Positions 21,004 to 36,826 of a stretch of 64,000 nt of DNA are shown here, piece by piece. The first letter of the stretch is position 1. Each line of letters starts with the position of its first letter. This DNA is from a bacterium. GTDB lineage: Bacteria > Electryoneota > RPQS01. The DNA lies in NCBI GenBank assembly GCA_023382385.1, contig JAHDVH010000002.1, positions 136,219-200,218 on the forward strand. The letters run 5' to 3'. Below the pieces are notes generated by a model that was given only the letters and a program-made list of their open reading frames with translations, searched no databases and had not been told where the DNA came from. A program made the position numbers and the translations under genes.

Positions 21004-24000
21004 TTAATTGCCACTGCAATCTGCAGTCACGACGTAGTAGCGATAGCCGTCGAAGCCTGCAGCGCCATCGTAGACAACCGAAGCACCGTTCAGAGCAGGC
21101 ACCGTGTCGTCGAGGATGAACTGCGGATCAAGACCGTCGTCCGGATTTCCATCGTTATTCGGGTTGGTCGAGTACCAGATCTTGTAGTTTGCATCCTGCG
21201 GGGCCGTGAAATGCAGTTGAATGAAGTTCGGGGCATTTCCGGCCGACACCACATACGCGCGGAGGTCGGTCACCGGCAGGCACGGGACCACAGTCACAGG
21301 ACAGGCCACTGTCGGCTGGCACGGAGTACCGTCATCAGACACCGTGAACGCGAACGTTCCCGTACCGCTGCCAAATGCCGTAATCAACAGCTTGTACTCA
21401 GCATTCGCGACCGAACAGAACGACAACTGCGAAGCCAGAGCCGGCGTGGTGCAGAAGTCGTCATCGTTCGCGACACACAGCAAGCTTTCGCAGGTCTCGC
21501 CGCAGAACACGCCGATTTCAGAGTCATAGATGGTCAGCGCGTCACACAGTGCTACCGTCATCGTATTGCCCGTGCCGATGATGTTGTACCAGACACCGCC
21601 GACCGTCGCACCGTACCACGTCGCACACGCGGGCAATCCGGTTTCGGCCGTATAGCCGACATTCGTACCGACATACGTCTGACCAAGCGCCGGGACTAAG
21701 ACAGCGCCGGCACAGGCATCGCTTCCTTGCAAAATCTGCGGGCAGGGATTGGCCTCACAGGTCAAGCCTGCGTCCCACAGTCCACCAAGTGCCGTGCACT
21801 CAATCTGCATCAGGTTCGCGCACGCATCACCGTTGTCATAGCAGCAGCGGCCCACCGGGCAGGGAGCGGCCTCGCAAGTTGTCGTGGATGTCCATTGACC
21901 GGAAAGAGCATTACACTCTAACTGGGTATTGGTCGCACACGCCCCGATACCGTTGTCGAGATAGCAGCAACGACCCACCGGGCAGGGGCTGGTTGCGCAG
22001 GAGGCAGCATCATTCCACTGACCACCGAGTGCGGAACATTCGGCAGCCATGTTGTCCGTACAAGCAGCTACTCCGTTAAGCAGATAGCAGCAGCGGCCCT
22101 CCGGTGCGCAATCAACATAGTTTACGCAAGGGACACTATCGCGGATGGCAAGTTCGTACGGGCCGCCCGTACCGGAGCCGTAGCCGTCCACCATGACGTA
22201 GTATTCTCGGCCAAGTTCTGAGCAGAACCACTCTACCGACCTTGTTGAACTGACAGTGCATCCTGCGGTAAACGCATCGTCATTACCGCCCACACAGGTG
22301 AAGTTCTGACAATCGCTACTACATGTAACAAGGAGTTGCGAATCGAACGTCGTGTAGGAATTACAAAGCGACACAACAATAATGTTCCCGGTTCCGACTA
22401 CCTTGTACCATTTGTCGGGAGCGGTGTTCGATCCCAGATAATCATCGCCGTTAAAATTGGACTCACAGTCAAAGTTCGGATCGTTGTCCGTGCCTCCCAC
22501 CAACGTGCCGCGGACAGTTGCCGGCACCGGCAGCAGTGGTGCTTCCGCGCAGGTATTGCCGCCGTCAATGAACAGCGGGCAGGGGCTGGCTTCGCAGGTC
22601 GTCGTGCCGTCCCAAACGCCGCCGAGGACAGAGCAGTCGTAGGCACCGTTGTTCGCACAGCTATTCCCGCCGTCATAACAGCAACGGCCGATGGCGGTGC
22701 ACGGCGAAGTGGTCAGCGTATAGGCATCGCAACCCGTCGAACGGTCCACCATGATGTAATAGGTTCCGGCTGCCAACGGCACACACGACAACGTCACGGT
22801 GTCCTGAGAGATGTTTGCAAACCGAATACAGTTAAAGCTGTCCGGCGGACAGGACGTCGAAACCACGAGACCGCGAGTCGTTGTGGTCGAGGCAATCAAC
22901 TGAATATTCCACGCACCGTTCGTCGACGTCGTCCAGCGATAGATATAATCCTCGCTGGCATCGGCGGTGCCCAAGCAGGTGTTGGCCCAGTCGTTGATTG
23001 CGCCGCACGTCGTGCCGGCATCCACAAAGGCATCGGCCTGCGCTTCATCGTAACAGTCGCGCACCTGCACGGTCACGCGAAGAGTGTCGTTGGTCCGGTC
23101 CTGATCCGTTGCCAAATCCGTGTACATCAAAAGTTCATAGTCGCCGACAGATGCCGGAGCAGTTTCGGTTCCGGCAAAGTCGTGATCTTCACTCTGATTC
23201 AAGGCGAGCACGGCCGTATTCTCCGAAACCACCGGACCGCCGTTAAAACGATACTTGACCGGAGCGGATTGCGCATTGTTTCCAATGTTGCGGAACTGAC
23301 CCACGATGTTCATCACTTGGCTCGGACTGACCCGCAGCGGACTCGGTGACACCACGCTCACGGTCCGGAAATCGTTGTTGTTGAACAACTGATAGAACCA
23401 CACCGCGCGGCCGTCCAGGTTGTTCGTGTAAGCGGAATCGGCTGCCGTGCTGCAATAGTAGTTCAGTTGGTCAAGTCCGGCGGCAGAAGTATTCTGAATA
23501 CCGATTGTCGGCGAAATTCCGTTCGCGCTCGTGCCGGAGATCTTCTGGATTTGACGATACTGCAGCTTGATCCTGCCGTCGTTCCAGAGTTGAAGCTGAT
23601 AGTCGAGCAAATCGGTGCCGTTAGTGCAGCACGTGCCGACCGAGTCCCACGTAATCGTTACGTGGTCGGCGTATTGCTGATAGACTACGCGGCCGCCATC
23701 TGAGCTGGCGCCGGTGCTGGTATTTCCGTCGTCGAAGTACGGCATAATCGCAGCGACCGTGATTCCCGATGCGGGGCAGCCGTTGGACCACGAAGTGTTG
23801 GAGGCAGAAAGGCCAAACACACCGTTGGTGGAGGCCCAACCGGATGTGTAATTGGTTCCGAAGAAGTTGAAGGTAAATCCAAACGGCACACTTGCGGACG
23901 CATCGTCCGAGCTGGAAATTGCCGTCAACTCGATCGGAGCGTTCGGCTCTTCCCATGCGTAGGTCGCGGTGTCACCGCCGAGATTGTCCACCCAGCGGTA

Positions 24001-24606
24001 GCCGTAGACGTTCGGTCCGCCCTGGGCGTCCAGCGGCGTACGACCGTCGCGCGATCCTTCGATCTCAGCCAGAAACTCGCTGGCCACCAGTTCTTCCTTT
24101 TCCGAAGGAGTAAGTTGCTCTCCGGTCTGCATCCTTGCATAGAGCGACGCATGGCGCGCTTCCGGACCGCTGCTCTGGCTGACCAATGCGATGTAAGCAG
24201 GATCGTCTTTGCCTTTCAACAACCCGCTTTGCAGCAATTCGAGCCGCTCACGGTCAGACAGGAGACTGCCGTCGTTGTGCCGCTCGAGCAGCCGCTCATA
24301 ATACGCGGGGTCGGTCGAAGCACGCTCCTGCTCTTCAGCCAAGGCCCGGAACTTGCCTTCGTCTGCGCCATTGCTGAAAGCCGGCGCGGCTTCGCCAAGC
24401 TCGGCCAGCTCGGCAACCACTGCGGCGCGCTTGGCGAGCAGTTCATCGTTGCTCACGTCTTGGATGAGCATCGCATCAATCTCAGCAAGCGCAGTGCGCG
24501 CAGCCTCAATGCGGGACATTTTTCTTGCCGACTCGGTAGCGGTCGCGAAATACGCCGCACCCAGCAGCACGCTGGACATCACAATCAAGGATAGCCACTT
24601 CTTCAT
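21004..24606 (-). CDS. giant secreted protein (paralog A): conserved ~215-aa N-proximal domain, PPC (pre-peptidase C-terminal)-like beta-sandwich domains and four ~38-aa six-Cys 'GRCCY' modules
   Basis: Signal peptide 'MKKWLSLIVMSSVLLGAAYF'. PPC-like 'YYIMVDRSTGCDAYTLTTS' and 'YYVMVDGYGSGTGGPYELAIRD'. Repeats such as 'GRCCYLDNGIGACATNTQLECNALSGQWTSTTTCEAAPCP'. Confidence 0.8.
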   Translation of the reverse strand: MKKWLSLIVMSSVLLGAAYFATATESARKMSRIEAARTALAEIDAMLIQDVSNDELLAKRAAVVAELAELGEAAPAFSNGADEGKFRALAEEQERASTDPAYYERLLERHNDGSLLSDRERLELLQSGLLKGKDDPAYIALVSQSSGPEARHASLYARMQTGEQLTPSEKEELVASEFLAEIEGSRDGRTPLDAQGGPNVYGYRWVDNLGGDTATYAWEEPNAPIELTAISSSDDASASVPFGFTFNFFGTNYTSGWASTNGVFGLSASNTSWSNGCPASGITVAAIMPYFDDGNTSTGASSDGGRVVYQQYADHVTITWDSVGTCCTNGTDLLDYQLQLWNDGRIKLQYRQIQKISGTSANGISPTIGIQNTSAAGLDQLNYYCSTAADSAYTNNLDGRAVWFYQLFNNNDFRTVSVVSPSPLRVSPSQVMNIVGQFRNIGNNAQSAPVKYRFNGGPVVSENTAVLALNQSEDHDFAGTETAPASVGDYELLMYTDLATDQDRTNDTLRVTVQVRDCYDEAQADAFVDAGTTCGAINDWANTCLGTADASEDYIYRWTTSTNGAWNIQLIASTTTTRGLVVSTSCPPDSFNCIRFANISQDTVTLSCVPLAAGTYYIMVDRSTGCDAYTLTTSPCTAIGRCCYDGGNSCANNGAYDCSVLGGVWDGTTTCEASPCPLFIDGGNTCAEAPLLPVPATVRGTLVGGTDNDPNFDCESNFNGDDYLGSNTAPDKWYKVVGTGNIIVVSLCNSYTTFDSQLLVTCSSDCQNFTCVGGNDDAFTAGCTVSSTRSVEWFCSELGREYYVMVDGYGSGTGGPYELAIRDSVPCVNYVDCAPEGRCCYLLNGVAACTDNMAAECSALGGQWNDAASCATSPCPVGRCCYLDNGIGACATNTQLECNALSGQWTSTTTCEAAPCPVGRCCYDNGDACANLMQIECTALGGLWDAGLTCEANPCPQILQGSDACAGAVLVPALGQTYVGTNVGYTAETGLPACATWYGATVGGVWYNIIGTGNTMTVALCDALTIYDSEIGVFCGETCESLLCVANDDDFCTTPALASQLSFCSVANAEYKLLITAFGSGTGTFAFTVSDDGTPCQPTVACPVTVVPCLPVTDLRAYVVSAGNAPNFIQLHFTAPQDANYKIWYSTNPNNDGNPDDGLDPQFILDDTVPALNGASVVYDGAAGFDGYRYYVVTADCSGN
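23385..24055. repeat. paralogous DNA block, copy 1 (411 bp 100% identical, ~470 bp >=99%) shared with 27566..28235
   Basis: Direct base-by-base comparison: 23624..24034 is identical to 27804..28214. The flanks fall to ~85-90% identity and then diverge. Confidence 0.9.
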
Positions 24607-24881: not shown

Positions 24882-27800
24882 TTACTGTGTCACAGTCAGG
24901 ACAAAGTCACCCGTCTGGCCGCCGAAGCCGCTGACGCGGATGTAATACTGCGTGCCATTGGTGGGCGTCGCCACGGTTCCGATCGTGTACAAGCCGTTGA
25001 TTGGGCAAGCCGAATCGTCGATACAGAACACTTCGGTTCCGCCGCATGATCCGTCGTAGCAACCCATCTTCGTGTCGTAGTTTGTGCCGTTATCGCACAG
25101 CGACATCGTAATCGGATTCGTGGACGTTGACGTATAGACGTACCACACATCAGGCACCGTGAAGATGCAGGAGGTCGGCTCTGCGCTGAACGTCGCACCA
25201 ACGGTCGTTCCGGAAACCGGCGTGTTGTTAAACACTTGGATTGCGTTGGCACATTCGTCATTCGGTCCCGCCACAGGGCACGGATTGGCAGCGCACGTTT
25301 GGAACTCGTTCCAAACGCCACCGAGCGCGGTGCATTCCGTCTGGAAGTTATCCACACAGTTCAAACCGCCGTTGTAGCAGCAGCGGCCAGTCGGCAGCGG
25401 CGGCGGACACGGATTCACTGCGCAGCTCTGGAACGGTCCGCCCCAGGTGCCGCCGAGTTCGGCGCAATCAGCCTGAGTCAGGTCGTCGCAGTTGTTGTTG
25501 TTGTTGTAGCAGCAACGGCCAACCGGTTCAGTGAACGGCGTGCAACCGGCCGTCACGACGAAGTAACGGTAGTTGTCGAAGCCCGGCGAAGCCTGATAAA
25601 CCACCGGACCAGCCGTGACGCCCAACAGGACGGTTTCAATCACGAAGTTGGGATCAGATCCGTCGTCCGGATTTCCGTCGTTGTTCGGGTTGTTCGAGTA
25701 CCAGATGGTGTAGTCTTCATCCTGCGGAGCCGTGAAATACAGCTTGTAGTTGTTCGGCAGGTTGCCGGCGGATTCCACCAGAATCGTCAGGTCGGTCACC
25801 GGATCGCACGGAGCTTCCTGACACGGACCGAAGTCGTAGATTGTCACGTTGTAGACACCACTGTTGCCGCTGGAGTAGTGACCGGCACGGATGTAATATG
25901 TGCCCGGGTTGAACAGACCGGCAACCATCGAACCGAATCCGGCAACCGGACGGAACAACGGATCGAGCCACGGAATCAGGTCGAGATCGGGGTTGCATCC
26001 CCAGTCATCGTTGCAATAGAGCGCCGTGCCGCAACAGGCATTGCTGACCGACAGATGCGGGTCGCAGAACGTGCTGTTGTCACCGAGGATCGCAATCCTG
26101 CGGCACTCGGTCAGCGTGAAGTAGTAGAACTGATCCGGGCCGGTGGAGTTCGGGAAGCCCGGACAATCATCCGCGCAAGCCAGTCCAACACAGGTCGGCG
26201 TCGCTGACGGGTTGCCGGCGGCGGCAGAGGCGCTGCCCATCGGCGGCACGACCATCAAGGTCGCCGTCGCGCAGTCGTCGTTGGTCGGCGGCGGCGGCGG
26301 GCACGGGCTGCCTGCGCAGGTCAGACCCTGCGTCCAGTTGCCACCCAGGGCGGTACATTCGGTCAACGTGTTGTCAATACAGCTTGAGTTGTTGTCATAG
26401 CAGCAGCGTCCCTGCGGCTCGCCGGCCGGCGTGCAGGTCAGCGTCAGCTTATAAAGCGACGGCGTCGGCAGACCAGTAAAGTTCCCATACGAACCGAACG
26501 CGACATAGCTTCCCGGTGCGAGCTGCAGCGCCGAAACGGACTGCGGTCCGGCTGCGCAGCTGGTAATGAAGGCGTTCGTGATGAAGAATGCCGAAGCGCA
26601 AGGATCGTGATCCACAATACCGAAGAGCAGGTTATCGAAGGACGACTGAGCCGTCAAGGTCACATCGCTGAACTCGGTAATCGTGAACAGGAACCAGTCC
26701 GTGTCACGGTAGCCGGTCGCATCACAGGTAAACGTCTGGGCACAGACCGTCTGACCGCACGCGATAGCGCCATAGAGCGGAGTCGCGAGGTTGCAACCGC
26801 CGTTGATGTCGCTCGTACCATTGGTGGCGCAGTAGTTCGGGAAGTCATCGGGTTCAATGACGTCATTTCCACCGCACGTCAGCGCGCAGAGATTCACGCA
26901 CGGCTCCGCCGCGCAGGACGTGCCGGCAGTCCAGACTCCGTTCAAGGCTGAGCAAGCCGCCGGAGAGTTGTCTGCGCATGCGGCACCATTGTTGTAGCAG
27001 CAGCGGCCGATTTCCGGAGTCGAGATGGACAGCGTGTACAGACCACTGCTTCCGCCGTAACCGTCTACCACGAAGTAGTACGTGTTGCCGGCAACAAGGT
27101 TAAGTCCCAGCAGCTGCGAAACAAATGGACTGGCATAGTTAGGTGCCGTGCAAGCGTCGTCGTTGCAGGCAAACGGAGTTCCCGGAGTTACCGCGTTCTC
27201 GTAAACATACATCTTGGTGTCATAGGCCGTCTGGCCTCCGCACAGCGTCGCATCGACCACCTGATTCGCACCCGGAGTATAGGCATACACCACATCCGGC
27301 GAGGTCGAACCGGTGAAGGGACAAACTTCGTCGTAGTTGTTCGTGAAGCCGACCGTCGTGCCGTTAGCCGAGTAAGGCAGCGAGGGGATGACAAAAGCAT
27401 TGCAGACGAGATCGCCAGCCACTGCTGTCGGGCACGGCGTTGCACAGGTGATATCAGCGGTAAATGTCCCGCCGAGTGCGGCACAATCAGTGATAAAGAC
27501 ACCGTCTACACAATTCGGTGCGCACGGGTTGGGGCCGTAGCAGCAGCGACCAGGAGTTGCTCCTCCCAAATAGAACCACACGGCGCGGCCGTCGAGGTTG
27601 TTCGTATAGGCCGTATCACCAGCCGTGTTACAATAGTAGTTCAGCTGGTCAAGTCCGGCGACAGAAGTATTCTGAATCCCGATCGTCGGCGAACTGCCGT
27701 TGGAACTCGTGCCGGTGATTCTCTGGATTTGACGATACTGCAGCTTGATCTTGCCGTTGTTCCAGATTTGAAGCTGATAGTCGAGCAAGTCGGTGCCGTT

Positions 27801-28661
27801 GGTGCAGCACGTGCCGACCGAGTCCCACGTAATCGTTACGTGGTCGGCGTATTGCTGATAGACTACGCGGCCGCCATCTGAGCTGGCGCCGGTGCTGGTA
27901 TTTCCGTCGTCGAAGTACGGCATAATCGCAGCGACCGTGATTCCCGATGCGGGGCAGCCGTTGGACCACGAAGTGTTGGAGGCAGAAAGGCCAAACACAC
28001 CGTTGGTGGAGGCCCAACCGGATGTGTAATTGGTTCCGAAGAAGTTGAAGGTAAATCCAAACGGCACACTTGCGGACGCATCGTCCGAGCTGGAAATTGC
28101 CGTCAACTCGATCGGAGCGTTCGGCTCTTCCCATGCGTAGGTCGCGGTGTCACCGCCGAGATTGTCCACCCAGCGGTAGCCGTAGACGTTCGGGCCGCCC
28201 TGGGCGTCCAGCGGGTTGCTTTCACGGCCGTTGGGGAACAGCATCGCTTCGAGGCGCTCGAACTCCGCCTTCTCAGTCGGCGTCAGTTGATAACCATCAT
28301 TCAGACGGTCGAGCAACGCGTGATACTGCACCTTTTCGGGCGCCACACCCAGCTCTTCCGCAGTTGCGGGAGCGACGTAGCCGGCCGGAGCTTCAGCAGA
28401 AACCGAAGGTCCGTCCATGCGCTGAACCTGCGCCGGAGCCTTGACCTCATTCATGCTGCTCAAAGATTGAATCTTTGCGTCAATTTCGTCAAAGCGCCCT
28501 TGCTGGGCGAGTTCTCGCTTGGCCTGAGCCAGTGATCTCTGTGCCTGCGGACTCAAACGCTTCGCGCTGTCGCTTTGGGTCGCGTAAGAATAGAACGCGA
28601 GCGAGCCACAACACAATAGCACGGCACACACATACCATAGCCATTTCTTGTTCATCTTCAC
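24882..28661 (-). CDS. giant secreted protein (paralog B) with the same architecture: at least six GRCCY six-Cys modules plus PPC-like domains
   Basis: Signal peptide 'MKMNKKWLWYVCAVLLCCGSLAF'. The N-proximal domain is ~95% identical to paralog A. 'GRCCYDNNSSCIDNTLTECTALGGNWTQGLTCAGSPCP' and related modules; C-terminal PPC-like 'YYIRVSGFGGQTGDFVLTVTQ'. Confidence 0.8.
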   Translation of the reverse strand: MKMNKKWLWYVCAVLLCCGSLAFYSYATQSDSAKRLSPQAQRSLAQAKRELAQQGRFDEIDAKIQSLSSMNEVKAPAQVQRMDGPSVSAEAPAGYVAPATAEELGVAPEKVQYHALLDRLNDGYQLTPTEKAEFERLEAMLFPNGRESNPLDAQGGPNVYGYRWVDNLGGDTATYAWEEPNAPIELTAISSSDDASASVPFGFTFNFFGTNYTSGWASTNGVFGLSASNTSWSNGCPASGITVAAIMPYFDDGNTSTGASSDGGRVVYQQYADHVTITWDSVGTCCTNGTDLLDYQLQIWNNGKIKLQYRQIQRITGTSSNGSSPTIGIQNTSVAGLDQLNYYCNTAGDTAYTNNLDGRAVWFYLGGATPGRCCYGPNPCAPNCVDGVFITDCAALGGTFTADITCATPCPTAVAGDLVCNAFVIPSLPYSANGTTVGFTNNYDEVCPFTGSTSPDVVYAYTPGANQVVDATLCGGQTAYDTKMYVYENAVTPGTPFACNDDACTAPNYASPFVSQLLGLNLVAGNTYYFVVDGYGGSSGLYTLSISTPEIGRCCYNNGAACADNSPAACSALNGVWTAGTSCAAEPCVNLCALTCGGNDVIEPDDFPNYCATNGTSDINGGCNLATPLYGAIACGQTVCAQTFTCDATGYRDTDWFLFTITEFSDVTLTAQSSFDNLLFGIVDHDPCASAFFITNAFITSCAAGPQSVSALQLAPGSYVAFGSYGNFTGLPTPSLYKLTLTCTPAGEPQGRCCYDNNSSCIDNTLTECTALGGNWTQGLTCAGSPCPPPPPTNDDCATATLMVVPPMGSASAAAGNPSATPTCVGLACADDCPGFPNSTGPDQFYYFTLTECRRIAILGDNSTFCDPHLSVSNACCGTALYCNDDWGCNPDLDLIPWLDPLFRPVAGFGSMVAGLFNPGTYYIRAGHYSSGNSGVYNVTIYDFGPCQEAPCDPVTDLTILVESAGNLPNNYKLYFTAPQDEDYTIWYSNNPNNDGNPDDGSDPNFVIETVLLGVTAGPVVYQASPGFDNYRYFVVTAGCTPFTEPVGRCCYNNNNNCDDLTQADCAELGGTWGGPFQSCAVNPCPPPLPTGRCCYNGGLNCVDNFQTECTALGGVWNEFQTCAANPCPVAGPNDECANAIQVFNNTPVSGTTVGATFSAEPTSCIFTVPDVWYVYTSTSTNPITMSLCDNGTNYDTKMGCYDGSCGGTEVFCIDDSACPINGLYTIGTVATPTNGTQYYIRVSGFGGQTGDFVLTVTQ
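27566..28235. repeat. paralogous DNA block, copy 2 (partner of 23385..24055)
   Basis: See copy 1. Identical spurious antisense ORFs (23621..23956 and 27649..28134) confirm the identity. Confidence 0.9.
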
Positions 28662-28739
28662 TCCTTCATGTTTTGGGGGGTCAGATGTCTTAACCCCGTC
28701 TACGGATGGACAAAACCTGCACGCCTGACGGCGAACCGT

Positions 28740-28960
28740 CAGTACCCTTTACAATATCAAATATAATTGCCAGCAAAATAGGATGTCAACAGGAGATTGG
28801 TTGAAATGACACAATTCTCTCTTTTGCATCTACTATTACAAACTCTTAAAATTCAATCAGATAAATTGAAAGTCATGTTGATTTAATTCTCGGTAAAAAT
28901 CTTAACTTTCGCTATTCTATCTATTTATTATACTTGACCCATTCATTCAACAATCTGCGT
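28740..28960. promoter_or_regulatory. ~220-bp AT-rich (~30% GC) non-coding island upstream of paralog B
   Basis: Strong compositional contrast with the ~60% GC surroundings. It lies between the start of the 24882..28661 gene and the terminus of the signalling cassette. Confidence 0.5.
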
Positions 28961-29062
28961 CAAACTAACGCCTCCTCTACACTGTGAATCATTTTGCGCA
29001 GAATGCAACCGCCTCGATGGTCGTCGAGGCGGATCATCGCGTTTCCCGAAGGTCTTGAAGAG

Positions 29063-29488
29063 TCAGACGTGCGCCGCACTCCGCAAGGCCTGAAAATACG
29101 ATTTCGTGAACAGGCTCAGATCGTTGCCGGCAGGCGAGAAATCCTTGTACAGAATCGCGCTTGCGCCAAGCGATTTGAGTTCGTCCGACACGGACGGTTG
29201 ATCAAAGATCGGCAATCCTGTCACCACCACCACGCCCGCACGCACATTGTCTTCCAGCAGTTTCATCAGCACGCTGCGCCCGCTCATGCGCGGCATTTCG
29301 AGATCGAGGGACACGACGTCCGGCTTCACGGTCTTGACAGCTTCGAGACACTCGTCTCCGTCCGCCACCGACCCTGCAAACTCGAACCCTTCCTCGCGCT
29401 CCACCAGCGCCTGCAACACCCTGCGCACAACCGGATTGTCATCGGCAATCAAAACTCTCACGTTGCGTCCCCCTTTTGGAACGGACAT
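29063..29488 (-). CDS. single-domain CheY-like response regulator receiver protein
   Basis: 'VRVLIADDNPVVRRVL' ... 'PDVVSLDLEMPRMSG' ... 'VVVVTG' (Asp pocket, phospho-acceptor D, T/K motifs). Confidence 0.8.
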   Translation of the reverse strand: MSVPKGGRNVRVLIADDNPVVRRVLQALVEREEGFEFAGSVADGDECLEAVKTVKPDVVSLDLEMPRMSGRSVLMKLLEDNVRAGVVVVTGLPIFDQPSVSDELKSLGASAILYKDFSPAGNDLSLFTKSYFQALRSAAHV

Positions 29489-29494
29489 TTACAA

Positions 29495-30442
29495 TTACTC
29501 CGCAGTTGCCATCTTGATAAACTCACGGGCACGGTCAATATTTTCTTCGATGTCGGTGACAAACGCCGGGATGTCGAGCGACAGGATTGCGGGATTCTCC
29601 TGCGCCACAACTTCCCACGCGGGGTCCTGCGCCAGATGGGCGTTCACACGTTCGCGCAGACTCTTGCTCAGAATAGCACGCGCCAAACTGGACGCCAGAT
29701 GCACGATTGCCGTCAGGACGCTGTGTTCCGGTGCCAGATGCGGCTGATGATGGTAGCGGATGCTTTCCACAATGGAATTCGGCAGCGACCACTTTTCAGC
29801 CAGCCACGCGCCGACTTCCGCATGGTCCGTGCCGAGCACCTTCTGCTCCGCGACGATTGAGGGAAGTCCCTCCTGCTCCGCGATTTTGAAAGCCTGCCCC
29901 AACTCATTGGGGAAGTATTGATGCAGGACAATTTTACCGATGTTATGCAGCAGTCCGGACGTGAACTCGATACCGTGCAGTCGCATTTGCAGCTTCGAGG
30001 CCAGCACGCGCGCGATTTCACCCGTGCCCGCGCTATGTTCCCAGAATGTCTCGCGCGAAAAAGCCGTGCCGCCGTCCAGCACGGGGAAAGCCTTGAACAC
30101 CGAAATCGATGTCACCAGATTTGAGACTTCGCGCATCCCCAGCACGACAAGCGCCATGTTCAGCGATTCGACTCGCCGCGGCATGCCGTAGAACGCGCTG
30201 TTCGAAACGCGCAGGATTTTGCTCGTCATGGACGGATCGTTGCGAATGATCCGCACGATTTCCGACATCCCCGCCAGCGGATCGTTCGCGAGCCGCGAGA
30301 CTTCCATCGCCAGCAGCGGCAGCGTCGGCAAGTCATGCGCATCCCGCAGCCGCTGCATCACAAATTTGCTCCGCGCGGAGTCTCCTGTGATCAGGTCATC
30401 TGCCGTCGGGACGGAAACGAAACTATGCGAAGAGTGATTCAT
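29495..30442 (-). CDS. HDOD-domain signalling protein
   Basis: 'LPTLPLLAMEVSRLANDP...EIVRIIRNDPSMTSKILRVSNSAFYG...LGTDHAEVGAWLAEKWSLP' matches the HDOD (HD-related output domain) pattern. Start set at the internal ATG 30442 (MNHSSH). Confidence 0.8.
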   Translation of the reverse strand: MNHSSHSFVSVPTADDLITGDSARSKFVMQRLRDAHDLPTLPLLAMEVSRLANDPLAGMSEIVRIIRNDPSMTSKILRVSNSAFYGMPRRVESLNMALVVLGMREVSNLVTSISVFKAFPVLDGGTAFSRETFWEHSAGTGEIARVLASKLQMRLHGIEFTSGLLHNIGKIVLHQYFPNELGQAFKIAEQEGLPSIVAEQKVLGTDHAEVGAWLAEKWSLPNSIVESIRYHHQPHLAPEHSVLTAIVHLASSLARAILSKSLRERVNAHLAQDPAWEVVAQENPAILSLDIPAFVTDIEENIDRAREFIKMATAE

Positions 30443-30459
30443 GAAATCTCCAATAATGA

Positions 30460-30924
30460 TCATACATCGAGAGATGTATTTAACTTGTCCAGGTTCAGCC
30501 AGAATACGTCGCCGTAGCGCGTGACGGTGCGCGCGCGGACGGGCAGCGGGGCGACAGACAGCTCCTGATGCAGCCACGCGCGCGGATGAACCGGGATCAC
30601 TTCATCGGCGTGATCAAACGCCAACCCAAGCGGACCGTCCACCGTGTCCACCAGTGCGATAGTCGCAGAGCCGTTACGGTGTGAATTTTCTGTTCCGATG
30701 ACATGACGCATGTCAAGCACCGGCACTCGACCGAACGCCAGTTGAACTTCTCCGGAATAGTCCGGATTCGACGTGGGAATCAGGGGTAATCCTACGAACA
30801 GACCGCGCACTTCGTCCACGGTCAGGCCAACCCGCCAGCCACCTAAGCGGAAGCACACGAGTTTTGTGGGGGGTGCGGCGGGCGCGGCTGCGGGCCGCCG
30901 GCGAATGGGAGGTGCTGAGACCAT
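30460..30924 (-). CDS. CheW-like adaptor domain protein
   Basis: 'LVCFRLGGWRVGLTVDEVRGL' is a CheW-like core; the N-terminus is Pro/Ala-rich. Confidence 0.7.
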   Translation of the reverse strand: MVSAPPIRRRPAAAPAAPPTKLVCFRLGGWRVGLTVDEVRGLFVGLPLIPTSNPDYSGEVQLAFGRVPVLDMRHVIGTENSHRNGSATIALVDTVDGPLGLAFDHADEVIPVHPRAWLHQELSVAPLPVRARTVTRYGDVFWLNLDKLNTSLDV

Positions 30925-30925
30925 C

Positions 30926-31120
30926 TTATTGCTGCTTTAGTTTTTTCTCGAGTCCCAGCAGCAGACGTGCGGCAATTCTGTTGGGGCTGGACTTGCCGTT
31001 CTCCCAACGGTTGACCGTTGAAAAGGTCACGCCGATGAGATGTGCGAAGTCTTCCTGTGTCAGCTGCATGCGCTGCCGGATCTGGCGGATACGCTCAGCG
31101 TCCATTCTCATTTGTTCCAA
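30926..31120 (-). CDS. XRE-family helix-turn-helix transcriptional regulator (64 aa)
   Basis: 'IRQRMQLTQEDFAHLIGVTFSTVNRWENGKSSP' is a Cro/C1-type HTH. Confidence 0.7.
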   Translation of the reverse strand: MEQMRMDAERIRQIRQRMQLTQEDFAHLIGVTFSTVNRWENGKSSPNRIAARLLLGLEKKLKQQ

Positions 31121-31342
31121 TGGTTTCTCCGGTCTGAAGGTACTTTGTGTTCATAACCATGACTCAATGTGCAATCAGTGGGCCATTGCGAACCCTATAG
31201 CTCGCACGTGTTCGGGATTACACATAAAAGTATATAAAATCAGTAAGTTAGAAAATGATGGGTGCGCCATACTGTGACTTATCTTAGAAAGTCTACCCTT
31301 CCTTCTGCGTCTCTCGCGAGCGCGTTGCCCTGCAACTCGGGC

Positions 31343-31370
31343 AAAAAAAAGACCCGGCAGCGGACGGGTC
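31343..31370 (-). terminator. intrinsic terminator for the 31417..32046 gene
   Basis: gacccg/cgggtc stem preceded on the + strand by an A8 tract (a T-tract on the minus strand). Confidence 0.6.
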
Positions 31371-31416
31371 ATGAACGGTTAGTTACAGGATAGCATGCGG
31401 GTCCGGCCCGCCGGAA

Positions 31417-32046
31417 TCAGTCCGCATACAAACCTCCGGTTTGCTCCAGCCAATTCGCGATCTCGTCTGACAGAGTGGGAATATCATCAGACGTCACATC
31501 CAGTCTGAGCACCGGCAGCATGCTTCGTTGGGCAAGTTCGATCAAATACTCCTGTTCACGAAGGAAAATGGATAGATTGTCATACTGCGCAGGATTGCCG
31601 GACACTTTCAGACGTTCTTCGCGCGCCGCCTCGAATGTTCCGGGACGCCGCACACAAAGGATAATCCGGAAACCGAGCGGCAGCAGACGCTCCTCCAGCC
31701 AGCGGAAATCATAGTCGCGCTGGCAATACAGGTGCTGGTGCATGATAGTTGAGAGATGAAAGCGGTCGACAATCCACGAGTAGTAGCGCAGCAATTCAAA
31801 CAGTCTCGCCCACGTGGCATACGTTTCCAGTGCCATTGACTCTTCCTGCGGCTCGAAGTTTATCAATCCTCGACCCCACGGAAAATTCGAGAACGCGCAC
31901 CACTCGCCGGACACGAGCGGTGACGGATAGCGATACTTGCGCGGCCCGACGATACGGGGATGCTCGTTCAGGGCAAACGCCAAGTCAGTTTTGTGCGTCA
32001 GGCGGGTGCCTTCGAGCAGGATCTTGGGAACGAGCTTTCGGCTCAT
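31417..32046 (-). CDS. hypothetical protein (no recognisable family)
   Basis: A 209-aa ORF whose start overlaps the tatC stop by 4 bp; no motifs I can assign. Confidence 0.5.
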   Translation of the reverse strand: MSRKLVPKILLEGTRLTHKTDLAFALNEHPRIVGPRKYRYPSPLVSGEWCAFSNFPWGRGLINFEPQEESMALETYATWARLFELLRYYSWIVDRFHLSTIMHQHLYCQRDYDFRWLEERLLPLGFRIILCVRRPGTFEAAREERLKVSGNPAQYDNLSIFLREQEYLIELAQRSMLPVLRLDVTSDDIPTLSDEIANWLEQTGGLYAD

Positions 32047-34981: not shown

Positions 34982-36454
34982 TTACTCGTCTTCGGGATGA
35001 AGGTCAATCCCTAAGTCTTTGGCCTTCTTCCAGAGAGTGGTGCGGTCGATTTGCAGCACGCGCGCGGCTTTCAGCACATGGCCGTTGGCGGCGAGCATCG
35101 CATTCTCGATGAATTGCTTTTCGAAGGCACGGACTGCCTGCTTCAGCGGGCCGAGGGTCATCGCGGCCTCCGGCAACGTGCCGTTTCCGTTGTTCGAGGC
35201 CGGTGCGGAATGCGGCGCCGCCTGGGGCAACGGATAATTGGTCGGCGGAGTCAGACTGTAGTTTTCCGTCGAAGCAATCGGCTGTTTGAGGAACTGCATG
35301 GTCGCCGCAGTGATGGTCGTTCCCGATGACGCGAGAATGGCGCGTTCGATGACGTTTTCCAGTTCGCGGACGTTGCCGGGCCACGGATGCGAAAGCAGCA
35401 TGGCCATCGCGTCGTCAGTGAAGGTGAAGTGTCCCTTCTGCAGGCGGCCGCCGATTTTGTCGAGGAAGTGCGCGCAGAGCATCGGGATGTCTTCCTTGCG
35501 CTCGCGGAGCGGCGGAATCGTGATGGGTACGACATTCAGCCGATAATAGAGATCCATGCGGAAGCGCCCTTCCTGAATCATTCGTTCGAGGTCGCGGTTG
35601 GTCGCCGTGACGACGCGAATGTTGACAGGAATTTTGCGGCTGCCGCCGAGCCGTTCGATTTCGCGATCCTGCAGGACGTTGAGCAGTTTGACCTGCGTGG
35701 AGAGTGAGAGCTCGCCGATTTCATCCAGAAAGATCGTGCCGCCGTTGGCCTGTTCAAACTTTCCGATGCGGGTTTGCTTGGCATCGGTGAAGGCGCCTTT
35801 TTCGTGACCGAAGAGCTCGGATTCGAGCAAGGTTTCTGGCAACGCGGCGCAGTTGACCTTGACGAACGGCTTTTCAGAGCGCGGGCCTTCGAAGTGCAGG
35901 GCACGGGCAACGAGTTCCTTGCCGGCGCCGGTTTCCGCGCGAATCAGGACCGTCGTATCGACGAACGCGACTTCGCGGATAGCATCAAAGACTTTGTGCA
36001 TGGCGGGCGAGCGTCCCACAAGTCCGCCGAGTTTGTGATCCCCGCCGAGCCGGCGCTTGAGCTTTTCCACTTCCCCCACGAGGCGAAGATTGGAAAGCGC
36101 AGCCTCGACCGTCCGCGCGAGCAGACGTGGTTCGAGGGGCTGGGATACAAAGTTAGTGGCGCCGTTCTCCATGGCTTCGACAATCCGCTCGGAGCGATCA
36201 TTCTCCGAGTAGATGACGACGGGCAGGCGCAGGTGACGTGAGCGGATGTCCCCGATCAGGGAGACACCCGAAGTCCCCTTCAAGTCCAAATCACAGAGGA
36301 CGACGTCAACGGTTTCGGTCTCCAGGCGGTTGAGCACATTGCCCGGATCAGTTTCCGTGAGGACGCGATATCCTCCCTCGGCGCGCAGCGAACTCGAGAC
36401 GTGTTCGAGCGCGGAAGTTTCCTCGTCTACAATCAGCAGTGTCGGTTCCGACAT
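34982..36454 (-). CDS. sigma-54-dependent response regulator (NtrC family: receiver + AAA+ + Fis-type HTH)
   Basis: Receiver 'LLIVDEE...DVVLCDLDL'. AAA+ 'RAETGAGKELVARALH', GAFTGA loop 'GHEKGAFTDA', 'ESELFGHEKGAFT'. C-terminal HTH. Start at the internal ATG 36454 (MSEPTLLIVDEE), which has an upstream GGAGA. Confidence 0.9.
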   Translation of the reverse strand: MSEPTLLIVDEETSALEHVSSSLRAEGGYRVLTETDPGNVLNRLETETVDVVLCDLDLKGTSGVSLIGDIRSRHLRLPVVIYSENDRSERIVEAMENGATNFVSQPLEPRLLARTVEAALSNLRLVGEVEKLKRRLGGDHKLGGLVGRSPAMHKVFDAIREVAFVDTTVLIRAETGAGKELVARALHFEGPRSEKPFVKVNCAALPETLLESELFGHEKGAFTDAKQTRIGKFEQANGGTIFLDEIGELSLSTQVKLLNVLQDREIERLGGSRKIPVNIRVVTATNRDLERMIQEGRFRMDLYYRLNVVPITIPPLRERKEDIPMLCAHFLDKIGGRLQKGHFTFTDDAMAMLLSHPWPGNVRELENVIERAILASSGTTITAATMQFLKQPIASTENYSLTPPTNYPLPQAAPHSAPASNNGNGTLPEAAMTLGPLKQAVRAFEKQFIENAMLAANGHVLKAARVLQIDRTTLWKKAKDLGIDLHPEDE

Positions 36455-36826
36455 TTTCCGGGTCTCCCGTTTCCAATGTCCATTCGTTACTATCCATAAT
36501 ACATCCTTTCCCTCGGCAAAAGCTGGGCCGAGCTGATACATCGCAACCTCCTTGTTCATCCGTTACAACATCGGGAAAGCCCCGAGAACTGAATCTGCTA
36601 TCCTCCTTGAAATACAGGGGAAGGGTTAGTTTGTCAACATAACAGTTTGCAGAGCAAAAGCCAAAGAGTCAAGGGAAAAGGGCTAAAAATGTCGAGAACT
36701 TTCTACGGGGAATAAAGACTCCAAATTTGACAATTCAGGCTCAGGAAGGTATATTTCTAATTCGGGAATTTTGGGTATGTTGCAAAGGGCAAACGTACCG
36801 GACGGGCTTACAAACTCCATAACAAC

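Follow-up and report, generated by a model that had tools for sequence, protein, structure and literature searches.

A compact four-gene cassette in the 64-kb stretch of DNA analyzed here (the window) is best explained, with slightly better than even confidence, as a terminator-bounded sigma-54 operon encoding a lineage-conserved transcription-control module that is built on an XRE-HDOD pair and chemotaxis-derived input adaptors. The cassette occupies positions 31120 to 29063 of the minus strand and encodes an XRE helix-turn-helix (HTH) protein, a CheW-like protein, an HDOD protein and a receiver, separated by intergenic gaps of 1, 17 and 6 nt, respectively. A preliminary description of this DNA had reported a co-directional and tightly packed set of four genes, and all four are found as follows:

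30926..31120, minus strand: XRE-family HTH protein, 64 aa, TTG start (Pfam HTH_3, 47.9 bits)
30460..30924, minus strand: divergent CheW-like adaptor, 154 aa, beginning 1 nt past the HTH stop codon
29495..30442, minus strand: HDOD protein, 315 aa, with a conserved C-terminal extension (Pfam HDOD, 204.5 bits)
29063..29488, minus strand: stand-alone receiver of the CheB N-terminal type, 141 aa (Pfam Response_reg, 66 bits)

A conserved cassette predicted to form its own operon

The same four genes, in unchanged order, are shared by six or more distinct related genomes and by many metagenome contigs, so the conservation of gene neighborhood that had been put forward as a check on the cassette is indeed observed. 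The HTH gene carries a GGAG sequence 6 nt 5' of its TTG start, and both the TTG and the GGAG are conserved. Codon differences in this gene comprise 20-28 synonymous against 1-2 non-synonymous changes. Because the gene order recurs in relatives and the codon changes in the HTH gene are mostly synonymous, we conclude from the sequences that the cassette genes are real and not chance open reading frames. For the HDOD gene, there is an alternative start at 30463 with an ATGA overlap.

The cassette is predicted to be a transcription unit of its own, with a terminator upstream, a sigma-54 promoter and a hairpin after the receiver gene, and to form one conserved operon under that promoter in its hosts, which are uncultured FCB-group bacteria. 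The features that define the unit are:

31343..31370, minus strand: predicted intrinsic terminator of the upstream TatC-p209 unit (stem GACCCG...CGGGTC, then T8)
31195..31200, minus strand: CTATAG element, located 12-17 nt 5' of the -24 GG and the only conserved block ahead of the core promoter
31170..31185, minus strand: predicted sigma-54 (-24/-12) promoter TGGCCCactgaTTGCA (TGGCCC-N5-TTGCA)
29009..29032, minus strand: GC-rich hairpin with a 9-bp stem, 3' of the receiver stop codon

In related loci, a hairpin followed by a T-run occupies the position of the TatC-p209 terminator, which is predicted to shield the cassette from read-through, and the same is true of the position after the receiver gene. 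The post-receiver hairpin (minimum free energy -23.3 kcal/mol over a 68-nt stretch; z = -1.8) is probably a weak terminator that closes the operon. A search of positions 28000-32000 against Rfam gave no match to an RNA element, and the composition of the cassette has no mobile-element signature.

A sigma-54 promoter at a fixed position

The preliminary description missed the conserved promoter that is predicted to drive the module, and what it called an AT-rich island is an intergenic promoter region of ~300 nt with 32-36% GC. We called a sigma-54 promoter where a GG-N10-GC element fits TGGCAC-N5-TTGCW and lies at a fixed distance from the gene, and the cassette element does both. It is the sole match to the strict pattern in the window, with both strands searched. 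In 35 of 35 non-redundant orthologous loci, which span at least five deep lineages, the element lies 63-70 nt 5' of the conserved TTG start, against a chance expectation of ~2.4e-5 per position (from the window-wide expectation for a loose pattern). The GG, GC and TT of the element are invariant across these loci (2.0 bits); the form found here is GGCCC-N5-TTGC and that of most relatives is GGCAC-N5-TTGC. The loose pattern is not enriched window-wide (4 matches versus 3.07 expected), and therefore the promoter call rests on positional conservation across loci and not on the count within the window.

A search 5' of the promoter for upstream activator sites and inverted repeats found nothing conserved except CTATAG, which is a candidate operator for the XRE protein. 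The conservation of this element is moderate (~1.1 bits at two positions among the 35 non-redundant promoters), and this, together with the failure to find an enhancer site, points against our best explanation. As a separate observation, a KSB1-like group has an inverted CATAGG downstream of the -12 element.

The window contains only one other two-component gene:

34982..36559, minus strand: orphan NtrC-type sigma-54 activator with receiver, AAA+ and HTH_8 domains (Sigma54_activat, 240 bits)

This gene lies ~4 kb upstream of the cassette, a position that is conserved in the source clade, and its product is a candidate activator of the cassette promoter; the window does not include rpoN. Three features count against our best explanation: the activator has GAFTDA in place of the GAFTGA motif, its receiver has a Lys-to-Gln change, and the gene is unlinked to the cassette in four related loci (L021, L022, L024 and L025). 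In Ca. Electryonea, a PAS kinase and an NtrC-type activator are directly followed by the HDOD ortholog.

The XRE-HDOD pair is the constant core

Comparison across loci indicates that the constant core of the cassette is the XRE-HDOD pair, and that the CheW-like protein and the receiver are variable, swappable accessories, a division that had previously gone unnoticed. An HDOD gene lies downstream in all 24 orthologous HTH loci with enough downstream DNA, compared to none of 49 generic XRE loci. The HTH and HDOD genes stand alone in L025, L040 and L042, and the receiver is absent from L022 and L053. In L024, L054 and L055, a HEAT protein and a 231-aa protein replace the CheW-like protein, and Hpt and full CheB proteins are also present; the sister-lineage order is HTH-HEAT-HDOD-Hpt-CheB.

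The HTH protein is 97-98% identical within the clade, where TatC from the same genomes is 77-81% and the CheW-like protein 53-62% identical, and it retains 71-88% identity to sister lineages. It resembles the C-terminal HTH domain of the antitoxin MqsA (TIGR03830, positions 64-119 of 127; 47.6 bits versus a cut-off of 61.8). We rejected an MqsA-type antitoxin identity, given that the 64-aa protein comprises the HTH part only, falls below this cut-off and has no MqsR. More broadly, it is extremely improbable that the cassette is a toxin-antitoxin or anti-phage defense module with an MqsA-like antitoxin. The HTH protein does match MqsA-family and other antitoxin HTH models, along with weak generic matches to defense-system HTH models. 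However, there is no specific PADLOC match, no zinc-binding N-domain and no MqsR-like toxin as a neighbor (the neighbors encode the CheW-like protein and p209), the only part of MqsA matched is its C-terminal HTH, below cut-off, and the cassette shows stable chromosomal synteny and strong purifying selection across deep lineages with no mobile-element composition.

The HDOD protein matches PF08668 over the full length of the model (positions 1-196 of 196), and also matches Pfam HD (35.6 bits) and the HDIG model (33.6 bits versus a cut-off of 27.6). Among solved structures, the HDOD protein 3HC1 is the nearest (E = 3.1e-31), and its pocket holds two irons bound by five His and one Asp. The H...HD...H...HH motifs of the two proteins align, and the five His in the cassette motifs WEHS, LLH(N), DHAE and YHH fall on the 3HC1 His, marking a candidate metal pocket. 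At the HD motif, all 24 source-clade sequences have HN and 91 others have HD.

It is conceivable, albeit improbable, that the real output of the cassette is the HDOD protein, acting as a two-metal phosphohydrolase that degrades, for instance, a nucleotide messenger, with the receiver and the CheW-like protein controlling the enzyme and the XRE protein serving only as operon repressor. HD-GYP relatives are c-di-GMP phosphodiesterases, which speaks for such an activity. The 91 family members that keep both the His positions and the HD Asp matching 3HC1 also speak for it, as does the passing of the HD and HDIG models. However, HN replaces HD across the source clade while the operon is still under strong selection, the literature we retrieved contains no HDOD domain with demonstrated catalytic activity, and SadB is an adaptor that works with no ligand binding. 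Nor would an enzymatic output explain the conservation of the XRE protein, which greatly exceeds that of the supposed enzyme.

Chemotaxis-type accessories with no linked kinase

The CheW-like protein scores 29.8 bits with Pfam CheW (PF01584), above the gathering score of 23.5, over profile positions 2-132 of 138. Its Pro/Ala-rich N-terminus (MVSAPPIRRRPAAAPAAPP), which had been described before, is present and kept in homologs. The protein belongs to a very small family and is the fastest-evolving product of the operon. The family profile matches the PDB CheW 2qdl (E = 5.9e-10) and E. coli CheW (E = 1.6e-4). An AlphaFold model from a 13-sequence alignment is of low confidence (mean pLDDT 57, with the C-terminal third below 50) and serves as a coarse fold check only; its top 18 Foldseek matches are all CheW or CheA-P5 (best E = 8.4e-7).

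In CheW, the conserved Glu38-Arg62 salt bridge aligns the receptor and kinase sites (Ortega et al. 2013, PMC3828127); the R62A variant of CheW keeps partner binding, but chemotaxis of the cells is impaired. In the CheW-like protein, Glu38 is retained and the equivalent of Arg62 is Ala63; homologs have A, P, S or K at this position, with Ser in the L021/L022 type. The preliminary description had pictured a scaffold that plugs into a Che system. Membership in the CheW family is consistent with this, whereas the absence of the signaling residue Arg62 weakens the idea of plugging into a Che array.

The receiver has the fold score, acidic pair, acceptor Asp, Thr/Ser and Lys of a stand-alone response regulator, and its phospho-acceptor set (DD in ADD, D in SLDLEMP, T in VVVTG and K in ILYKDF) is conserved in all orthologs. 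The name CheY, used for it earlier, is not established, as the receiver is most like the N-terminal receiver of CheB. The CheB receiver is its best NCBIfam match (68 bits, positions 3-130 of 357; the CheY model gives 36.6 bits), and in L024, where a full CheB occupies the same position, the receiver half of that CheB is 31% identical to the cassette receiver.

Neither Pfam scans of all large open reading frames in the window nor the precomputed Pfam matches for 10 kb to each side of the cassette contain a HisKA, HATPase_c, Hpt, CheA or MCPsignal domain, and there are no CheR or flagellar genes in the 64 kb. The statement that no kinase, MCP or CheA lies in reach thus holds across the window, and no complete che operon is present within ~29-33 kb on either side. 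Similarly, in ~10 related genomes there is no complete che operon, CheA, MCP, CheR or flagellar gene within 7-10 kb of the cassette. With the related L024 CheB as query, the best 120 matches listed include no source-clade CheB. The original picture, a compact module that combines chemotaxis-type proteins with HDOD and has no kinase within the window, is supported, and its genes are predicted to be co-transcribed; overall, the observation is confirmed and its interpretation is supported in part. Given a conserved sigma-54 operon with an XRE-HDOD core and swappable chemotaxis parts, we conclude that the cassette is a new arrangement of known signaling domains and does not represent a displaced fragment of a chemotaxis cluster.

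A rather unlikely alternative is that a canonical chemosensory array is encoded at another site in the genome and that the cassette supplies outlying accessory parts for it. In that case, the CheW-like protein would bind CheA and receptors, CheA would phosphorylate the CheB-type receiver, and the HDOD protein would act on the array pathway, perhaps in adaptation or in a phosphatase-like capacity, leaving autoregulation as the only role of the XRE protein. The CheW fold and Pfam membership, the nearness of the receiver to CheB receivers, and the Hpt and full CheB of the L024-type variant all argue for such a role. The earlier suggestion that HDOD proteins are chemosensory accessories also fits the gene contexts of other loci: L107 has a complete flagellar/che operon with HDOD directly after CheB and a HEAT protein as well, and L026 reads CheD-HDOD with overlapping genes. 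The HDOD genes in these two contexts weigh against our best explanation. Against an array accessory stand the missing CheA, MCP, CheR and flagellar genes within 64 kb, and within 7-10 kb in the relatives. Furthermore, the CheW-like protein has no Arg62, evolves fastest and is dispensable in sister lineages, and strict linkage to a near-invariant XRE protein and a sigma-54 promoter is atypical of che accessories.

The giant secreted proteins downstream

Two giant secreted proteins are encoded directly downstream, and their control by the module had been suggested. The adjacency is kept in the source clade, L021 and L022; the control has no direct support. Control of these proteins as the main task of the module, which would fit our best explanation as a specific target, is unlikely. 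In its favor, the source clade, L021 and L022 all have a homologous giant gene directly downstream of the cassette despite differing upstream neighbors, other variants likewise adjoin very large secreted proteins, and the -10 region of the giant gene (CTATATTTG in several clade members) resembles CTATAG. However, the giant gene sits behind the closing hairpin of the cassette and has its own conserved sigma-70-type promoter (TTGACA-N17/18-TATATT, 11/12 matches), with no sigma-54 site 5' of the gene. A search for motifs common to the two promoters gave only a loose CTATA likeness that overlaps the -10 box. The window encodes many large T9SS-type proteins along its whole length, and in L024 and L025 the neighbors belong to other protein families. 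Lastly, the conserved block that holds the cassette and the giant gene also includes the phoU-pst operon, and because the whole block is syntenic, adjacency alone proves little and may be plain synteny.

Proposed working and significance

In the working that we propose for the transcription-control module, the fixed core would consist of the sigma-54 promoter with CTATAG, the near-invariant 64-aa XRE protein and an HDOD protein that keeps the His ligands of the two-metal site. Two accessories from a chemosensory pathway would be added to this core, the CheW-like protein as an input adaptor and the CheB-type receiver as a phosphorylation input, which other lineages replace or lack. An enhancer-binding activator, with the orphan NtrC-type protein 4 kb upstream as the candidate, would turn the operon on. 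The XRE protein would bind DNA, most likely at CTATAG in its own promoter and possibly at further targets, and the HDOD protein would set the activity or stability of the XRE protein on a metal or redox signal. We suggest the HDOD protein as the XRE partner because of the analogy with SadB and AmrZ and the strict linkage of the XRE and HDOD genes. A kinase or Hpt protein from another locus may phosphorylate the receiver, whose acceptor residues are intact, and the CheW-like protein may tether the receiver to the HDOD protein.

More tentatively, the XRE-HDOD pair could be an undescribed sigma-54-wired switch, in which a metal-binding HDOD protein is the sensing partner of an XRE repressor and chemosensory leftovers (CheW-like protein, CheB-type receiver, Hpt and HEAT) have been recruited as interchangeable input adaptors. 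Equally tentatively, the targets of such a switch might include the adjacent giant T9SS-type surface proteins. If this is true, HDOD would gain a defined role as a transcription-factor partner, and a chemotaxis pathway would have been reduced to a gene-control device lacking CheA and receptors.

HDOD is a common bacterial signaling domain of mostly unknown function, with phenotypes for only a few proteins (SadB, MmoQ, GsmR and Cj0248). In the literature searched, HDOD and CheW are named together only incidentally; we found no paper for the related assembly GCA_013360195 and nothing useful on chemotaxis in Calditrichota. The comparative data link one HDOD family to a sigma-54 promoter, a near-invariant DNA-binding protein and, variably, chemotaxis-type phosphorylation inputs. 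These fixed partners therefore provide a testable hypothesis, namely that the HDOD protein is a transcription-factor partner, and the cassette parts are all small, making reconstitution in E. coli feasible. The locus also indicates that CheW, the CheB receiver, Hpt and HEAT are separable from CheA and receptors and can be re-used for gene control. Consequently, “CheW” and “CheY” calls in genomes of uncultured FCB-group bacteria should not be taken to indicate chemotaxis.

Comparison with known systems

MmoS/MmoQ and MmoR form the copper switch of the soluble methane monooxygenase in Methylococcus capsulatus, and the MmoQ structures (PDB 3LJX and 3P3Q) match the cassette HDOD protein at E ~5e-16. 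As in the cassette, an HDOD-type regulator with a phosphorylation input is found beside a sigma-54-dependent activator (MmoR, RpoN). However, MmoQ is a two-component regulator with its kinase MmoS adjacent, whereas the cassette has an HDOD gene followed by a separate receiver gene and no linked kinase. The Mmo system also lacks XRE and CheW-like proteins, and in the cassette it is the HDOD operon itself that is the predicted sigma-54 target.

SadB of Pseudomonas aeruginosa is an HDOD adaptor that controls the small DNA-binding protein AmrZ post-translationally and needs no ligand in the HDOD pocket, and it is our model for the proposed XRE-HDOD partnership. SadB has an N-terminal YbaK-like domain and has lost most of the pocket His, while the cassette HDOD protein is single-domain with five His. 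AmrZ is a ribbon-helix-helix protein encoded elsewhere, and SadB-AmrZ has no sigma-54 promoter, CheW or receiver.

The che operon of L107 (FlhA-FlhF-FlhG-FliA-HEAT-CheR-CheY-CheY-CheA-CheW/CheZ-CheB-HDOD) shares a CheW domain, a CheB-type receiver and HDOD with the cassette, and HEAT with the sister variant. Complete che operons that end in HDOD are the likely evolutionary source of the cassette accessories. Relative to L107, CheA, MCP, CheR and flagellar genes are all missing from the cassette, which has gained the XRE gene and the sigma-54 promoter; identity between the two HDOD proteins is only ~30%.

CheV combines a CheW domain and a receiver in one adaptor. In the cassette, by comparison, the CheW-like protein and the receiver have a gene each, with the HDOD gene between them, the receiver resembles that of CheB, and the CheW-like protein has no Arg62 and no array partners nearby. 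Finally, the Che3-CrdA system of Myxococcus xanthus is a chemosensory pathway with an NtrC-type sigma-54 activator as its output, and Che3 includes a full set of CheA, CheW and MCP and is not known to include an XRE or HDOD protein. As proposed for the cassette, chemotaxis-type parts are here tied to sigma-54 gene control and not to motility. The order differs, however, in that the predicted sigma-54 step of the cassette lies upstream of the Che-like parts.

A compact operon with no linked kinase

A preliminary description had placed four co-directional genes between 29063 and 31120 with no kinase, MCP or CheA in reach. We find all four genes there, on the minus strand, separated in order by gaps of 1, 17 and 6 nt, and the second statement extends to the whole 64-kb window: Pfam searches of all large ORFs returned no histidine kinase, CheA, Hpt, MCP, CheR or flagellar gene. 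The sole further two-component part in the window is an orphan sigma-54 activator.

Cassette genes and flanking features (Pfam scores)
36559-34982, minus strand: orphan NtrC-type sigma-54 activator
31370-31351, minus strand: strong terminator closing TatC and a conserved 209-aa gene, upstream of the cassette
31120-30926, minus strand: XRE-type helix-turn-helix (HTH) protein, 64 aa; TTG start with GGAG 6 nt upstream; HTH_3, 47.9 bits
30924-30460, minus strand: CheW-like protein, 154 aa; CheW, 29.8 bits against a GA of 23.5, match almost full-length
30442-29495, minus strand: HDOD protein, 315 aa; HDOD, 204.5 bits; HD, 35.6 bits
29488-29063, minus strand: receiver, 141 aa; Response_reg, 66 bits

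The receiver gene is followed by a GC-rich hairpin of 9 bp and then by about 300 nt at 32-36% GC. Comparison with related loci shows the cassette to be a predicted operon bounded by terminators and preceded by a sigma-54 promoter. The HDOD stop and receiver start lie in one frame (TAA TTG TAA ATG, 29488-29497, minus strand), which could be the trace of an earlier HDOD-receiver fusion. The 209-aa gene (31417-32046, minus strand) overlaps the TatC stop by 4 nt and has no Pfam or NCBIfam match; because it is kept (74-81%) beside TatC in every genome of the source clade, it may encode an unrecognised Tat-associated protein. At a related locus, L018 (7465-9650), about 2.2 kb is inserted between this gene and the cassette promoter. 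The insert carries an ORF with a T9SS-like C-terminal sorting sequence at its end, and the promoter remains with the HTH gene despite it. T9SS sorting domains are also frequent in the window, in agreement with the FCB group.

A conserved sigma-54 promoter

Predicted promoter elements of the cassette
31185-31170, minus strand: sigma-54 promoter TGGCCCactgaTTGCA, about 50 nt 5' of the HTH start
31200-31195, minus strand: CTATAG element, 12-17 nt upstream of the GG and less conserved than the sigma-54 element

With both strands searched, the strict -24/-12 pattern matches once in the window, at this promoter. A looser pattern is not enriched there (4 found, 3.07 expected), and the case for the promoter therefore rests on conservation. 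The element recurs at the equivalent place in all relatives retrieved by protein look-up and in 28/28 metagenome loci that have an orthologous HTH and sufficient upstream DNA. Across 35 non-redundant promoters in total, the GG, TT and GC positions are invariant and the element lies 63-70 nt before the conserved TTG start; the source clade reads GGCCC, compared with the canonical GGCAC of most lineages. With a chance rate of about 2.4e-5 per position, to meet the pattern again within an 8-nt range of positions in at least five deep lineages goes far beyond chance. CTATAG is a candidate operator, and the KSB1-like group has an inverted CATAGG directly downstream of the -12. A search upstream of CTATAG found no conserved activator site. 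In one lineage (L038 and L039), the orthologous HTH gene begins with ATG and has no canonical sigma-54 site at the distance seen elsewhere; a second, more divergent HTH gene follows it before the contig ends.

An XRE-HDOD core with variable accessories

The cassette genes differ widely in how well they are conserved within the source clade.

Identity to the window protein in the source clade
HTH: 97-98%
Sigma-54 activator: 83-85%
TatC: 77-81%
HDOD: 75-80%
Receiver: 71-73%
CheW-like: 53-62%

Codon differences in the HTH gene are 20-28 synonymous versus 1-2 non-synonymous. The CheW-like family is tiny: 5.8 billion proteins contain 13 clusters of it, and a set of 1.84 billion yields only two representative clusters below 1e-30. 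HDOD has the larger family (279 clusters at E <= 1e-10), with members labelled Calditrichota, KSB1, Delongbacteria and Electryonea, and its gene contexts vary.

Gene order at related loci
Source clade and L021: HTH-CheW-HDOD-receiver
L022: HTH-CheW-HDOD, without receiver
L025: HTH-HDOD alone
L024: HTH-231aa-HEAT-HDOD-Hpt-CheB, with full CheB
Ca. Electryonea: PAS kinase, NtrC-type activator, HDOD
L026 (more distant HDOD family member): CheD-HDOD

For a reciprocal test, metagenomes were scanned with an HTH alignment and the loci annotated with locally built HMMs. An orthologous HTH occurs at 31 loci. In 24 of these the sequence reaches far enough downstream, and every one has a same-strand HDOD gene, with CheW between the two in 19, direct adjacency in 2 and the HEAT type in 3; at a further three loci the contig stops inside the CheW gene. 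Conversely, HDOD, CheW or receiver genes were found at none of 49 loci with a merely generic XRE protein. The comparison thus shows a strict linkage of the XRE and HDOD genes and a fixed core of sigma-54 promoter, XRE protein and HDOD protein, to which the CheW-like protein and receiver are lineage-variable accessories. At locus L013 (10485-11428, Aved_18-Q3 MAG) a frameshift splits the HDOD gene into ORFs of 268 and 46 aa; this is either a pseudogene or an error of long-read assembly.

State of the individual proteins

The HTH protein aligns with MqsA-type proteins in their C-terminal HTH half only, below the family cut-off, and a toxin-antitoxin or defence module was rejected. The Pro/Ala-rich N-terminus previously noted in the CheW-like protein is present and, being kept in homologues, is coding. 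This protein is a homologue of CheW: the profile of its family hits 2qdl (5.9e-10), and in a Foldseek search with a weak model (pLDDT 57) CheW or CheA-P5 makes up all of the best 18 hits. It retains Glu38, and the Arg62 position is Ala, never Arg in homologues. In CheW the Arg62-Glu38 salt bridge is conserved, and R62A impairs chemotaxis although binding persists (PMC3828127). By this comparison we consider the protein a non-canonical CheW. The cassette could possibly be an accessory to a Che array whose genes lie elsewhere, since HDOD and CheB-type parts occur in che operons. This reading loses weight because Arg62 is missing, because the CheW-like gene evolves fast and is dispensable, and because the cassette is linked to an XRE protein and sigma-54.

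The best match of the receiver labelled "CheY" is the N-terminal receiver of CheB rather than the CheY models. Because it keeps every phospho-acceptor residue, a phosphodonor is to be expected, and comparison shows a competent receiver. For the HDOD protein the nearest match is 3HC1, a Geobacter HDOD protein (E 3.1e-31) in whose pocket one Asp and five His hold two irons (PMC12075610). All five aligned His are kept across the HDOD family, and the HD Asp is Asn in 24/24 source-clade sequences versus Asp in 91 others. That HDOD is an enzyme and the real output of the cassette is very unlikely in our judgement: the metal ligands favour it, but the HN change is clade-wide and catalysis is shown for no HDOD protein in the retrieved literature.

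Proposed working of the cassette

The organisms are uncultured, and beyond the comparative facts we infer the following mechanism. An enhancer-binding activator would switch the operon on, and the orphan protein of NtrC type at a distance of 4 kb is a candidate; Electryonea, with kinase and activator directly before HDOD, supports this link. The XRE protein would bind DNA, probably at CTATAG and possibly at further targets, and the HDOD protein, by analogy with SadB, would be its partner, setting its activity or stability. A kinase or Hpt protein encoded at an unlinked site would phosphorylate the receiver, whose signal would enter via the CheW-like adaptor; HEAT, Hpt and CheB would take the role of these two in the variant of L024 type. 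The part types of the cassette and its variants (CheW, CheB receiver, Hpt, HEAT, HDOD) can all belong to a complete che operon, for example L107, and the accessory and variant parts therefore look like chemosensory-pathway remnants re-used for gene control. Every proposed step is open to testing by reconstitution.

In the candidate activator, GAFTDA replaces GAFTGA, the sigma-54 contact motif, across the clade, and the conserved Lys of its receiver is Gln (FVSQPL). The Electryonea homologue has a normal GAFTGA; the loci compared were L013, L014, L016, L018, L020 and L027. The gene's leader (36500-36700, minus strand) is very highly conserved at the DNA level among clade members. One sigma-54-like element, TGGCTTttgctCTGCA, lies upstream of the gene and another, GGCCCagcttTTGC, within the annotated first 15 codons, a possible sign of autoregulation or of a wrongly called start.

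The adjacent giant proteins

The preliminary description also raised control of the two neighbouring giant secreted proteins by the cassette. Adjacency is retained in three lineages, but the giant gene is preceded by a promoter of its own and by no sigma-54 site, and it belongs to a larger syntenic block with phoU-pst; we think such control unlikely.

Promoter of the first giant gene
28662-28800 region, minus strand: near-consensus TTGACA-N18-TATATT, in the low-GC stretch of about 300 nt

A conserved GTGT...TTT..AACCA block precedes this promoter (L013, L014, L016 and L020 compared), and 3' of it the leader of about 100 nt has a conserved hairpin of the ACTGGTG...CACCAG type. The giant proteins (21004-24606 and 24882-28661, minus strand; 1200 and 1259 aa) are paralogues with 61% identity across the first ~400 residues and repeated Cys-rich modules. 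Neither has a Pfam match, and orthologues give merely faint T9SS-associated hits.

Comparison with known systems

None of the domains is new. What the literature searched does not describe is the architecture, the wiring to sigma-54 and the XRE-HDOD core: we found no XRE-CheW-HDOD-receiver operon in it and only an incidental HDOD-CheW link. CheV and che operons ending in HDOD share parts with the cassette but not its logic. For instance, L107 (GCA_039793565.1, JBAMLK010000004.1, 3553-11905), a complete flagellar/che operon, reads HEAT-CheR-CheY-CheY-CheA-CheW/CheZ-CheB-HDOD, where a HEAT-repeat protein of 626 aa precedes CheR, CheW and CheZ are fused, and HDOD comes directly after CheB; this order shows that HDOD and HEAT proteins can be members of che operons. 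The closest working analogues include MmoS/MmoQ with MmoR, where an HDOD regulator stands beside sigma-54 control, and SadB-AmrZ, where an HDOD adaptor controls the small DNA-binding transcription factor AmrZ.
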